64,000 bases of DNA from Callorhinchus milii (taxonomy: Eukaryota), in assembly GCF_018977255.1 (NCBI RefSeq), contig NW_024704742.1:85996001-86060000 (forward strand). Reading direction: 5' to 3'. Shown here piece after piece: positions 8,067-12,829 of the stretch; the stretch's first letter is position 1, and each line of letters opens with the position of its first letter. Both the position numbers and the translations under genes were made by a program. The notes below the pieces were generated by a model, which did not search any database, was not told where the DNA came from, and saw nothing but the letters and a program-made list of their open reading frames with translations.

Positions 8067-9059
8067 TCGATATTGATCATTCACTTCATGGCTGTTTGTG
8101 GAACATTGCTATGCACAAATTGGTTACTGGACTCACACAGTCACTACATCTTACAGTAAATCCTGTGAAGTTCTTTGAGATATTTTCCTGATGTAAAAGA
8201 AGACAAAAGAGGAAATGTTCATTGAACTCTGTTTATCCAGACAATGTCCATTTAAATGAATTTTCTTGGTATCAGCAATGTATTTTTGTATCATTTACTC
8301 ATTTTTTTTTACAATATAAAGTGACAGTCCACATCCAACCTGCTCCAACAAATACCTGTGGTCACATCTAGAAAAGTCAAGACCACAAACAAGTTAAGTG
8401 CCAGAGGTGATTCGAGGTTGTTATTTTGGTGTCGGTAACAAATTTTGTAACTTTCACTAAGTACACATCCTATCTGCCACTGCGATCTTTAACATCCACC
8501 TAAGCAGGCAGACAGTACCTTGGTTTAATGTCTTAGTTTAATCCAAAAAGCACCTCTAACAGTGCATTGCTCTCCCAGCACTATTCTGGTCTGTCAGCAT
8601 AGACTATGAGCTCAAAATTCCAATGCGGGGATTGAACCTGTAACCTTTTGATTTAGTATGAGTGAACATTGCAGTATATGATGTGATGATCATTTTTCAT
8701 GCTGCTCTCTTATCTGAATCACCGGGTATTATTTGAATGACTTCTGCGACTCTGTAAGACTTAAACTGATTGATACAGTAGTTGAAGCGCTCTGGGACGC
8801 TACTGCGAGTGAATGGCGCTGTATGAATGCAAGTTGTTCTTGTTGGGACTTGTAAAAAAAACAGGTTAGGGCTAAATTTATGACATTTCATAACAGATTT
8901 GATGTGATGACATTGAATGTGTTGTGAAATGCTGCAAATTTCAACCTTCTGTTCCCAAAATTAAATGTTATAAATAAGAAGCAGACTTTTTGCCAGCGGA
9001 TAATTCTGCAATTTATCAGAACTGTAGAACCACAAGTACAATTTTTTAAAAAAAAGTGT

Positions 9060-9140
9060 TTGGAGTTGAGGTACAGATCAGCCATGATCTAATAAAATGG
9101 CAGAACACGCTCGAGGGGCTGAATGGCCTACTCCTGTTCC
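9060..9140 (+). mobile_element. CR1 LINE 3' tail
   Basis: gatcagccatgatc...gctcgaggggctgaatggcctactcctgttcc. Confidence 0.7.
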
Positions 9141-9149
9141 GATCAAATG

Positions 9150-9370
9150 ACTGTTGGTTAGACTAAGCTGATAGCACTCTCACTTCTGGGTTGGAAGTTA
9201 AGGGCTCGAACCCCAAGCTGGAGTTTGATTTCACACTGCAGTACTGGAGGAGCTCTGCATTTTCAGATGTGCCATCTTTCAGATGAGAAATTAAACCGAG
9301 GTAGACGTTAAAGATCCCATGACACTTGAATGGAGTTGCTCTCGATGCCCTGGCCAACAATTTCAAAATG
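9150..9370 (+). mobile_element. Deu-domain SINE fragment
   Basis: tttcagatgagaaattaaaccgagg...gttaaagatcccatgacac. Confidence 0.65.
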
Positions 9371-9382
9371 GTTCCTGATAAG

Positions 9383-10843
9383 TTGGGCCAATAGAAAAGT
9401 GTGAAAATATTTGCAAAAAAATTGCAGAGAGCTTTATGAATTTTGTGGAAGGTTGGGGAAACGTTTGCTGCATTTTGCGGGCGAATTGCGGAGGGGGGTG
9501 ATTGGTACTATTCAGAGATGCATTTTGCTGCTAACCTACATTTTTTTTCTCATTTTTAAAAACTAAACATAAAGAAATAACAATTCATAGATTATTGGAA
9601 AAAAATGAATTTATTAATGTATTCTTTAACAAAAACACAACATAACACAATTCAAAAAATACAAAAGCACAGTTTCAATCATTCAGGAACAAGTACACAT
9701 CCGTGTCCTCAACATGTTTCTTCAAAAATGCTTCATGCTCAGGAACAAGCTCCTTCAAATATGTATTCCAAAGCTGTGATGGTGTTGGAATAGTCCCTCC
9801 CTGTTTTGTGTACTTGCATAGAAACTCTTGGAAGGCAGGAGGTTTTTCAAGCGGTATGTCTGCTCTAGTCAAATACTGCACAAAGTCAATATGAATTCTT
9901 TCCTCTCCATAGATGATGGATGGCTCCAGAGAAGCAGGCTGTCAGAGGAAGTTGTCTTTGGGATCCATTGCCACCTAGAAAGGAAAAAATAAAAATTGAT
10001 CTTGATGATACATTTGTCGTTAGAAATGTTCTGCCTATCTGTTTTTATTTGCTGTGGTTGTTTTATGTGCATTTAAAATTCAATCAAAAAGGAGGGAGGT
10101 TAACTTTTGTAATCATACAAATTAAGATTTTCTTTCAAAATTAAAGTGAAAACAAATAATGATACATTTTCATTTAATATTATATATATATCCAAAGTAT
10201 TTTACCTTCCTTTTTATTCTTTATTGCCTCTGCCTTGCGTTCACAATGTGCTCAGCAATGGTGTACTTGCGAACATGGTCAATTGTGTGACAGCAAATGC
10301 AGCGAAACAACTGACCCCCTTCTTCATAAAGGTTATCTGGATAGAGTACAATTCTATCTGAGGGACAGACGGAAAATGGGATGAGCTGCCCCTTGGTTTC
10401 CTCACGGGATTTACAAAAACGTTGAGACATTTTTGTATTGAACGACCTAAAAAGTGAAACAACCCTAATTAAAACTATAGGTATATATCCCCTGAAAATG
10501 TAGTTATGTATGAAATACGAAAATTTTAATTTGAATAGTACGGCTCTTACTACGCGTTTATCGCAGTACAGTAGTGTGACGCAGCTGCTTTTCCTATTGA
10601 GGTTCACTCACCAGCAAAGTCGATTTCCTGCACACGCCACTTCTGCGGTCCTAAAATTCACCGCCCTGTGCCATGGGCGATTGGTGTTGCTCCAGCCATA
10701 GTAGCAGCATTGAGCAAACAGTGTGAGAGGCCTGGGGCCTAGCACACTGTGTGGTTCGTACCCGAGGGGCTGTTTGTAGCGGACGAGGGTCATTGTTGCG
10801 GAAAATCAGGGAAACATGCACCCGCACCTTATTATTGGCCCAG
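9383..10843 (-). mobile_element. Non-autonomous hAT DNA transposon carrying a CGGBP-like gene
   Basis: TIR TTGGGCCAATAGAAAAGTGTG (9383-9403) vs reverse complement of 10823-10843 CTGGGCCAATAATAAGGTGCG (16/21); perfect 8-bp TSD CTGATAAG at 9375-9382 and 10844-10851. Confidence 0.85.
9675..10430 (-). pseudogene. CGGBP1-like gene (hAT transposase N-terminus with zinc finger), two coding exons, frameshifted
   Basis: Exon 10430-10206 (SVCPSDRIVLYPDNLYEEGGQLFRCICCHTIDHVRKYTIAEH) and exon 9974-9675 (QRQLPLTAC...IDFVQYLTRADIPLEK...FLCKYTKQGGTIPTPSQLWNTYL) match recalled CGGBP1 motifs (PLDRVTEF..LHEDGGKLFC..C...LNHVRKSAISDH; DFVKMCLEANIPLEK..FL.RHVKNGGSIP..DQLRRAYL); GT-AG intron 10205-9975; three 1-nt frameshifts. 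Confidence 0.85.
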
Positions 10844-12829
10844 CTGATAAGGCGCAGAGACACCACGGAGCACACGGGTGCTGTTGAAAGAGCAACGAGA
10901 CTATTTCTGAGGCTAAACGATTGCTTTATGTAAAGTCTTTTGGATAACAGATGATCTCACATTCGTGGAGTGTGTACAAGTGAGGCTTGACTGCTTGTGT
11001 GAAGCAGCCAAACCTCATGTATAATTGGTATGGTAATTGGATAATGAATAGGCTGGTTAGTTTAGCTGGTTAGTAAGTGTGTGAGTGAGCTGTCTAGGTG
11101 CTGATCCCTGCCTGAATTTAATCTGAATAGAGTTTATATCTAAAATAAGTACAGCTTCTGTTTGAACTAGTTACCAATGACTTAATATCACACTGGTAAT
11201 GCTTTAGAATAAGGCTACATGGTGTACATTTGTTTCCCTTTAGATAATGCACACACTAATGCCTCCCATCTATGCTCTCCACCAAAGCATTCGTTCCCAT
11301 GGTAATCTTCTACAATTCCAGTATTGCTGAAAATTCCCAATCCTGTTCTGATTTCACTCCGTTCACTAAATAACAGTGTAGAATGTGATTTCCTACACTA
11401 AGATTTGAATTGGTGTACCATTTAAATTTCTAGTGAGTGCAGACAATTATTATATTAAATGTAATTTCTCCCCTTTCATGAAGTTGTAGATCTATGATAT
11501 TGAGAGTCTTTCTTACTCTGATTGCTAAAAATAATGATCTTATAATTATGTCTCTATAGCAGGATTTTAACAGATCAAAAGATCACTATATTTAGTGGCT
11601 GTCAATGTGGTGCTATTTCATAGACTCTTAGGGATAAAGGTGGATTCGTCTCTGGGTAAGAAGGAGATTGACGTTACAGGTCTAAGTATAGACTGAGATG
11701 ATCAATAACTGCAATACACTGTGGTTTTTGTCCTGCTGGGTCTATGCAAATGTCAACTCAGAAATTCATCTGCACAAGGTTGAATAATTTTGATTGATAT
11801 CCTGGAAGTTTAACTCAATTATTTTCAGGAACCAGGGAGAAATTTCAGAGATTCCTTTCAGAAGCTTTGCCTGCAGGTCATAATCATAATAATAATCTTT
11901 GTATTTGATATAGTACCCATAGCACCTCAACCTGTTTCACAGGCAGTTGCCCACTGTGAGACATAAGGCTCATTACTGTTGGGGCAGAGTAGAGGAATTT
12001 TTCATTATACCAGACCTGGAAGTTCCTCATAAGCACATTCCTCTAACACTTGTTGCTCTCCTTGCTTACTTGATATTGACATGAGATACATACTTTACAA
12101 TATATTTTGTGACGTGCCTTGAGATGTCTGAACAATGTGATAAGGCGCTAAATACAATATTAAATGTAAGGATTATATTATAAATGTAAATGTTTTATTC
12201 CCCCTTGAATGAGGACCAGATCTCCTGGAAACTAAACAATACTGGATAATAGTAATTTATTACAGAGTTTCTTTTAACAAAACATTTTGATGAGTTGTCG
12301 CTGTTTACAGTTTGACAGGTCACAAGTCTCTCAGTACCATCTGCTTGGATGTGCTTCAGTTCTGAGACTGTTGGCTGTGTCCAGATTATTGCCCAGTCAG
12401 AGATCTTGATAGGATCTTCTATATTTGTCTCATATTAATGACTGGCACAAAGGCGCTAAAGTGTGTACAGGATTTCCAACATTAGGTCTACCTAATCAGT
12501 TTAGATAATGCCCCTAACCTCTGGAACTCTCTTTACCCCTCGGTTTTGCCACCTCACTATCTGTCTTTAGTATCCCACCTTGAAACTCACCACTTTGATC
12601 GTGCCTATGGTCAAATCACTCACATCCTCCTTTTCCATATATTTACTCCTGGGCTGCCTGTAGGAAATCCTGATTAATGGATGTATTAAATGGATTGACA
12701 AACAAGACAGACAACCTGTTTAGTCTGATGACATTAATTGTTGTGCTGCACTACTTAAATATTGTGTGGCACTGGATTTGGCCCCTTCCGGTAATCTTGC
12801 GGAATCAGTCTGCTTTTGAGTTCGATCTT

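Follow-up and report, generated by a model that had tools for sequence, protein, structure and literature searches.

The element described here lies in a 64,000-nt stretch of the Callorhinchus milii genome (contig NW_024704742.1, positions 85,996,001 to 86,060,000 of the forward strand; hereafter the window) and occupies window positions 9383-10843. We conclude, with a probability of about 0.85, that it is a decayed copy of a non-autonomous hAT transposon, derived from an autonomous element of 2.66-2.9 kb by a single internal deletion of ~1.26 kb. The initial annotation had seen in it a transposon whose cargo was a CGGBP1-sized gene, but this gene is instead what an ordinary internal deletion has left of the element's own transposase gene, namely its N-terminal DNA-binding part, intron included. 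The same annotation had proposed that the unit transposed when it already lacked the catalytic domain, and this held up, as the same deletion joint was found in seven, probably eight, copies at unrelated loci.

The shared joint is the main argument for a common origin of these copies, which we call short-A. The deletion joins the first catalytic motif of the transposase, DETTD, to the 3′ untranslated region (UTR). In long copies the 5′ side of the joint reads ...GATGAGACCACTGATTC/CAGTGG... (ending ACCACTGATTC/CAGTGG, the slash marking the break) and the 3′ side reads ...CAAACTGTGTTG/AAACTGCAC..., with GTGTTG before the break, while the short form reads ...GATGAGACCACTGATTGAAACTGCAC... across the joint (core ACCACTGATTGAAACTGCAC), giving D-E-T-T-D-stop with a TGA assembled at the joint itself. 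Because the 3′ breakpoint lies just downstream of the transposase stop, the 3′ UTR with its AATAAA is retained in the short form. The family majority is open through exons 1 and 2, and the ancestral short form ended FLDETTD-stop. In the 991 Mb of genome searched, the joint was identical by sequence in L001, L002, L003, L010, L014, L018 and L037, with L012 as a probable eighth case, and when a 120-nt probe over the joint was used, 7/40 scored matches spanned it (the window included) and most of the others broke between probe positions 60 and 61 or nearby. Pairwise comparison of the short-A copies showed homology limited to the element, with unrelated flanks, and the shortened unit was therefore mobilised. 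Copies with the same ends, different flanking 8-mers and the same truncation, for which the initial annotation had recommended a search, do exist, and the truncation is not confined to the window copy. That the catalytic part was lost only after a full-length element had inserted at this site is the least probable of the readings we considered, with next to no weight: the window copy does carry small private deletions (16, 9, 1 and 1 nt), but the large joint is the same in seven copies at unrelated loci.

The long members of the family show what was removed. The element matched elsewhere in the genome at 70-89% identity (at least 68 matches, from 40 of 1042 first-look candidates), and an exon-2 protein probe detected 59 distinct loci, with 61 matches among 84/84 candidates scored. 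Several copies hold an extra 0.9-1.4 kb exactly where the window frame stops, and this DNA encodes the hAT-type motifs ATDNASYMIKAF..CIAHLLNL and LPVSTADVERSFS..L..NRQSL. Both ends are present in the long copies L078-L081, which measure 2662-2911 bp and are flanked by duplications matching at 8/8, 7/8, 6/8 and 6/8 positions, respectively. In L013 the CGGBP-like part continues in a single 224-codon frame across FLDETTDSSG (DVYLFLDETTDSSG) and on into the catalytic region, and this frame is collinear with residues 114-325 of a 596-residue homologue (E value 4e-29); its continuity contradicts the idea that the long copies are short copies carrying a foreign insertion. L065, with a length of 2615 bp and a duplication of 7/8, was rejected as a full-length copy, being a short derivative with foreign retroelement insertions. 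Seven longer homologues of our N-terminal profile (426-639 residues) were scanned against Pfam, and Dimer_Tnp_hAT scored above the cut-off in 4/7, while DUF659 was found at E ≤ 0.01 in six, two of these above the cut-off. The 8-bp target duplications and the relationship to hAT transposases bear out the assignment to hAT made initially, and sequence comparison places the element in the CGGBP1-like group of this superfamily (mainly hAT-19 in PMC8097297), its hAT-19 placement being a putative one by the shared CGGBP1-like N-terminus only.

Direct reading of the window confirmed the limits of the element as first annotated, with 21-bp terminal inverted repeats pairing at 16/21 positions, a length of 1461 bp and perfect 8-bp target-site duplications on both sides. 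The pair 9383-9403/10823-10843 ranked first of 110 inverted pairs in a repeat search of positions 9000-11300, and copies at other loci carry the 21-bp family terminus, CTGGGCCAATAGAAAAGTGCG, at either end, so that the ends of the element are not a product of chance. Both ends were identified in 17 copies (flank matches of three of them were scored by eye from printed sequence), and 13/17 retain at least 6/8 of the 8-bp duplication, for a chance expectation of ~2/8. The duplication is 8/8 in five copies (L001, L007, L025, L066, L078), 7/8 in five (L015, L009, L020/L063, L065, L079), 6/8 in three (L014, L080, L081) and 4/8 in three (L002, L003, L037), and that of L024 is displaced by a 1-base shift. 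The flanking 8-mers vary from locus to locus. No paralogous empty site was found in the same genome, where the right flank is unique, as is the left one outside a high-copy repeat at its distal end.

The homology of the coding part to CGGBP1 is, on sequence comparison, solid. A 20-row profile (A4), built from translated pieces without alteration, was run against 1.84 billion representatives and gave 463 matches at E ≤ 0.001, of which 92 reached E ≤ 1e-10 and 7 reached E ≤ 1e-30; the matches were short proteins and proteins of 570-700 residues matched at their N-terminus. One of them, P0028 (E value 1.2e-21), represents a cluster in which those members that carry a name are mammalian 'CGG triplet repeat-binding protein 1'. 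Alignment of the profile with a 167-residue CGGBP1 member by hhalign gave a probability of 99.5%, an E value of 2.7e-22 and 33% identity over 134 columns (residues 17-156), and the gene model of the window copy aligned with CGGBP1 at an E value of 7e-23 and 34% identity. The CGGBP1-like motifs noticed along the whole coding part are thus supported by both profile search and hhalign. Two cysteines, two histidines and a proline are nearly invariant in 46 homologues (C38, C41, H56, H62 and P108 in the family majority), and these residues have been tied to sequence-specific binding (PMC8097297). Pfam zf-BED matched neither the family nor the longer homologues scanned, and it is likewise unmatched for CGGBP1 (PMC8097297). 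A predicted fold with a predicted local distance difference test (pLDDT) score of 89.5 had weak VIA-align matches, the best at Z 5.6, with zinc-finger rows at Z 5.1-5.6 (U1/matrin type, residues 13-78) and assorted helix-turn-helix domains at Z 4-5 for residues 78-160; the first sequence of this fold model was a mis-spliced gene model, which may distort its middle. Foldseek with the predicted N-terminal domain returned nothing at E ≤ 0.001, and the fold matches listed included no Hermes or BED entry.

None of the copies examined keeps an intact frame. Both exons free of frameshifts and stops were found in 0/40 copies, the number covered by this check out of 59 exon-2 loci. Divergence from the family majority was lowest in the intron (6.3%, or 6.0% when CpG sites were excluded), followed by exon 2 (7.3%, 6.8%), exon 1 (9.8%, 7.9%) and the 5′ part (12%, 9.7%), so that the exons are kept no better than the intron. 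The ratio of nonsynonymous to synonymous differences (pN/pS) against the family majority was 0.91 for eight short-A copies, 0.69 for six copies like a second short form (short-B), 0.82 for 15 long copies and 0.81 for all 40 (L059, badly aligned, was dropped from this calculation), and differences at codon positions 1, 2 and 3 numbered 529, 491 and 452. The tree is star-like with long terminal branches, and the whole pattern looks like one transposition burst followed by neutral decay. A dN/dS below 1, which the initial annotation had named as a check, was looked for in this way, and neither a single intact copy nor a departure from neutral-looking substitution emerged. The step towards domestication that it envisaged finds no support in these broken frames, neutral substitutions and exons no better kept than the intron. 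The element is an ordinary internally deleted transposon relic, with no sign of a working gene.

We propose the following course of events. The parent would have carried 21-bp inverted ends, CGG-containing subterminal repeats and one two-exon transposase gene, in which exon 1 would encode a BED-type zinc finger and exon 2, after a 231-nt intron, a second DNA-binding part, an RNase-H-like domain beginning at DETTD and the hAT C-terminal region. A deletion from DETTD to just past the transposase stop, which may have arisen by abortive gap repair with a 2-nt microhomology, would have left the promoter, exon 1, the intron, a shortened exon 2 and the 3′ UTR, with a TGA at the joint. This derivative would have encoded ~180 residues, with the domain content and size of CGGBP1, and, having both ends, would have been carried to at least seven loci by transposase that full-length copies supplied in trans, with 8-bp duplications made at each move. 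We infer this mobilisation in trans from structure only, because no intact autonomous copy was found. By analogy with PMC8097297, the DNA-binding domain of the family probably bound the subterminal repeats, and all copies would then have decayed neutrally.

Several observations weigh against this account. An intact autonomous copy was not found, and the full-length copies are broken into many frames in 4/4 examined. The decayed catalytic pieces of the family fall below Pfam cut-offs (DUF659 at an E value of 4.4e-5, Dimer_Tnp_hAT at 0.035). In the star-like tree the short-A copies fail to group as a clade, and their sequences offer just one good diagnostic substitution in favour of a shared origin, carried by 5/6 short-A copies vs 1/31 others. 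Three short-form copies have poor target duplications (4/8). The termini of the element begin with CTG, while hAT ends are usually CAG or TAG. Furthermore, at least ten joints have their 5′ breakpoint at element positions 297-454, a stretch of 160 nt corresponding to the last 50 codons before the catalytic domain, and both amplified forms stop 0-2 codons from their joint, which purely random deletion does not predict.

The second of these amplified forms, short-B, has the joint GATGT/AGGTTAG and reads ...EDTDVG-stop; it was recognised by sequence in L006, L007, L019 and L066 and by coordinates at three more loci. Single further joints occur in L004, L009, L015, L016/L020, L022, L024, L025, L030, L058 and L065, and four more copies (L008, L021, L029, L060) have breakpoints inside the catalytic part. 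Direct repeats of at least 14 nt linking the two breakpoint zones were not found in the two long copies examined. In a census by coordinates, catalytic sequence adjoined 23/59 exon-2 loci, seven catalytic loci had no exon 2, and 17/40 matches to the 5′ end of the element had no exon 2 within 2 kb, the census from the 5′ end being by coordinates only. The sample of copies is capped in size and biased, as the probes contained the DNA-binding region and favoured copies that keep it.

An alternative that we regard as unlikely is that the short forms spread because a DNA-binding-only protein competed with the transposase at the CGG-containing subterminal repeats, in the manner of the KP derivative of the Drosophila P element, and so became raw material for CGGBP-type host genes, today's copies being what is left of them after decay. 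The architecture is that of KP, in which internal deletion has left a frame for the N-terminal DNA-binding part (PMC7776569). Two independent forms were amplified (short-A with 7-8 copies, short-B with 4 + 3), with frames ending at most two codons from the joint, and 5′ breakpoints at most 160 nt from the domain boundary recur in at least ten distinct joints, with no direct repeat of at least 14 nt to link the breakpoint zones in two long copies. The putative promoter, the intron, the 3′ UTR with AATAAA and six CCGCA repeats at the 3′ end were all kept, and the database protein P0002 matches exon 2 of the short-A copy L003 with the intron removed. However, 0/40 copies are intact, the short-A pN/pS of 0.91 is no lower than that of the long copies, the exons are no better kept than the intron, and the star-like tree has no sign of a long-lived short-form lineage. 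The sample is biased towards copies with the DNA-binding region, loss of the central catalytic rather than the 5′-proximal part is expected from geometry alone, and the 17/40 matches to the 5′ end without exon 2 nearby indicate that other derivative types exist. A role as repressor or regulator of the autonomous partner, which had been suggested for the encoded protein, is accordingly unsupported, with no selection signal in pN/pS, in the comparison of exons with the intron or in the tree. It is similarly doubtful that DNA-binding-only mini-genes with their own promoter, intron and poly(A) signal, formed by recurrent deletions and favoured by KP-like inhibition, are the usual origin of the non-syntenic CGGBP-type genes of fishes, insects and fungi.

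The nearest database proteins to the family are filed under Callorhinchus milii, and they bear on a further alternative, that a domesticated CGGBP-like host gene happens to lie between chance inverted repeats. In favour of it, a gene model with an intron exists at the locus (P0003, 145 residues, 'uncharacterized protein' in UniRef), and the possession of introns and a length below 200 residues have been used as an argument for host-gene status (PMC8097297). P0003 is built from three segments of the window copy, however, with unsupported splice sites placed around the frameshifts, and the intron belongs to the transposon itself. Together with the family termini, the perfect target duplication, the dozens of copies and the three frameshifts, this makes a host gene very improbable, and with its inverted ends, target duplication, broken frames and neutral substitutions among dozens of copies the element is not a CGGBP host gene. 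P0002 ('CGG triplet repeat-binding protein 1-like protein') corresponds to exon 2 of the short-form copy L003 at 97%, and its junction, KK-G-GSGPQ, fits the intron that we inferred; its accession series is one that we take to be cDNA-derived. By eye, P0001, P0004, P0005 and P0006 match copies L006, L058, L024 and L013. In UniRef, at least six entries (P0001-P0006, 90-161 residues) are gene models over decayed copies, several with improvised splice sites; one of the six is named CGGBP1-like and another is named a DUF4371 domain protein. Because the transposon has this intron of its own and was already truncated while still mobile, introns and a length below 200 residues fail to separate host genes from relics. 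Truncated, intron-containing 'CGGBP-like genes' in databases can be transposon relics, which calls for caution, and in transposon-rich genomes the same effect may inflate the number of 'CGGBP genes' counted.

The Ds elements of maize Ac offer a familiar precedent, being many internally deleted forms of one autonomous element that keep both ends and are mobilised in trans, and the family described here, with at least ten deletion joints, resembles them. A few hundred bases are usually needed in cis by hAT derivatives; unlike Ds-type derivatives, the amplified forms here retain far more than this, namely the complete 1.1-kb 5′ part with the DNA-binding coding region in it. KP is likewise internally deleted and non-autonomous and keeps the N-terminal DNA-binding part in a protein of 207 residues, which competes for P-element sites (PMC7776569). 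KP belongs to the P/THAP superfamily and has experimentally shown repressor activity, whereas our family is assigned to hAT/BED and is known from dead copies alone. A literature search returned nothing specific on truncated-transposase repressors of hAT elements or on this family in chimaera.

The closest described systems are autonomous hAT elements such as hAT-19_Crp and hAT-13_LCh, which are ~2-2.5 kb long, encode a transposase that fits the CGGBP1 domain model at its N-terminus and have subterminal motifs containing CGG (PMC8097297). Similarly to the hAT-19 group, the family here has a long form of 2.66-2.9 kb, a CGGBP1-homologous N-terminus and TTGCGG-type repeats at the 3′ end. The motifs bound by CGGBP-like hAT proteins mostly contain CGG and are repeated subterminally in the elements that encode these proteins, and cartilaginous fishes are absent from the text and Table S1 of that study (PMC8097297). 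CGGBP1 itself is conserved only in amniotes (PMC8097297). The amniote protein shares the homologous bipartite DNA-binding region and is similar in size (167 residues, ~180 here), and it ends near the same domain boundary, its last aligned residue lying ~30 residues before the DETTD motif of the family. CGGBP1 is a single-copy host gene, in contrast to the multi-copy, broken and neutrally evolving element here with its inverted ends and target duplications. CGGBP1 and the family are homologous, and no ancestor-descendant link is implied. The significance of the family is that it offers a one-step route to a CGGBP1-sized, DNA-binding-only frame in a still-mobile element with its own putative promoter, intron and 3′ UTR, which can be spread through a genome, a route that would explain non-syntenic CGGBP-like genes.

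The anatomy of the window copy is given in Table 1. The minus-strand gene of about 175 codons first annotated here has no continuous frame, as three deletions (16, 1 and 1 nt) shift it, and because of these three frameshifts the window copy is dead and cannot make protein. Compared with the family, exon 1 has lost 16 nt between 10248 and 10247, within the putative zinc finger, and with them the stretch holding the second histidine, and exon 2 has lost single nucleotides between 9919 and 9918 and between 9888 and 9887. A 9-nt in-frame deletion between 9682 and 9681 has turned DETTD into ND. The longest open pieces are 69 codons from the ATG at 10430 and 88 codons ending at 9675, split by the intron at 10205-9975. 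The acceptor AG lies at 9975-9976, and the split-codon reading KK-G-GSGPQ agrees with P0002. Contigs from sequence runs (X1, X2 and X7, whose RNA nature is a guess) contained no joint at the predicted intron, and some bridge the boundary between element and flank or the exon 2 acceptor; the bridging contigs fit DNA or unspliced read-through, many contigs derive from other copies, and they give no evidence either way on splicing. Pfam and PDB sequence searches with the exon pieces of the window copy gave no match, nor did tRNA and Rfam scans of positions 8800-11400. The minus strand has an AATAAA hexamer in the 3′ UTR at 9610-9615 by direct reading, which would serve as the poly(A) signal, and the 5′ non-coding region presumably holds a putative promoter and the 5′ UTR.

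The window copy keeps four TTGCGG-type subterminal repeats, two intact and two CpG-decayed, and the motif has four matches in the 71 nt at 9422-9492 vs 93 in the 64 kb on both strands. Within the last 110 nt, the 3′-end majority sequence built from 19 copies carries CCGCA (TTGCGG on the opposite strand) six times, always in the same orientation. By analogy with the elements in PMC8097297, these repeats are presumed to be transposase-binding sites.

Table 1. Features of the hAT-derived element and its borders in window coordinates.
Feature	Position	Strand	Basis or remark
Left target-site duplication (8 bp), CTGATAAG	9375..9382	.	Read directly; identical to 10844-10851
Terminal inverted repeat, gene-relative 3′ end of element	9383..9403	+	16/21 match to 10823-10843
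Retained transposase 3′ UTR	9404..9674	-	Aligns to 3′ part of long copies, beyond the end of the transposase frame
Subterminal TTGCGG-type repeats, some CpG-decayed to TTGCAG/TTGTGG	9422..9492	+	Motif scan; starts at 9422, 9443, 9475, 9486
Stop codon TGA, made at deletion joint (~9677/9676)	9675..9677	-	Alignment of short and long copies; 2-nt TT microhomology
Exon 2 remnant, linker and second (Hermes-type) DNA-binding part	9678..9974	-	Two 1-nt frameshifts and 9-nt deletion
Transposase intron, 231 nt, GT..AG	9975..10205	-	Inside element in all copies, short and long
Exon 1 remnant, putative BED-type zinc finger, ATG at 10428-10430	10206..10430	-	16-nt frameshifting deletion
5′ non-coding region of element, CpG-rich, fast-decaying	10431..10822	-	Aligns to 5′ part of other copies
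Terminal inverted repeat, gene-relative 5′ end of element	10823..10843	-	Pairs with 9383-9403
Right target-site duplication (8 bp), CTGATAAG	10844..10851	.	Read directly

Some further observations concern the insertion sites and the distribution of the family. A central AT (positions 4-5) and, in most cases, an A at position 7 characterise the target sites (L001, L007, L009, L014, L015, L020, L025, L065, L066 and L078-L081), as in CTGATAAG, GTCATCGG, CCTATGAG, ATAATGAG and GTTATAAG, which points to a marked target preference of the family. The repeat at the far end of the left flank (window 9059-9143) is short and very abundant, with 968 first-look candidates, 92-96% identity over ~60 nt and a word depth in the thousands in sequence runs. 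Within the 5′ non-coding part, ~95 nt (10689-10783) match alone, at 79-82% identity, at eight or more loci without exon 2 nearby and may represent a separate short derivative or a miniature inverted-repeat transposable element. A striking share of the copies sits at ~8.0-8.9 Mb on the small contigs C12, C13, C16, C18 and C19 of the searched genome (G000), which may be comparable repeat-rich chromosome regions.

Two pairs of loci stand out. L010 (C16:8.886 Mb) and L018 (C16:8.440 Mb) lie in opposite orientation and have frame-breaking mutations in common; L010 is truncated. We considered them as proof of late transposition of an already broken short form and rejected this, as only the inner 1.1 kb are 92% alike and the terminal 100 nt are 72% alike, a pattern more in keeping with gene conversion or partial duplication than with simple transposition. 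The copies at C20:12596851-12598060 and C20:12667350-12668569 have identical scores and opposite orientation, lie 70 kb apart and hold the 5′ end and the catalytic part with no exon 2 detected; they are probably an inverted segmental duplication. Finally, distant relatives of the catalytic part, at 36-37% identity, occur at G000:C429:5314-5721 and G000:C400:63074-63487 in uninterrupted frames of 261-263 codons, and may belong to a younger hAT family or to a domesticated gene.

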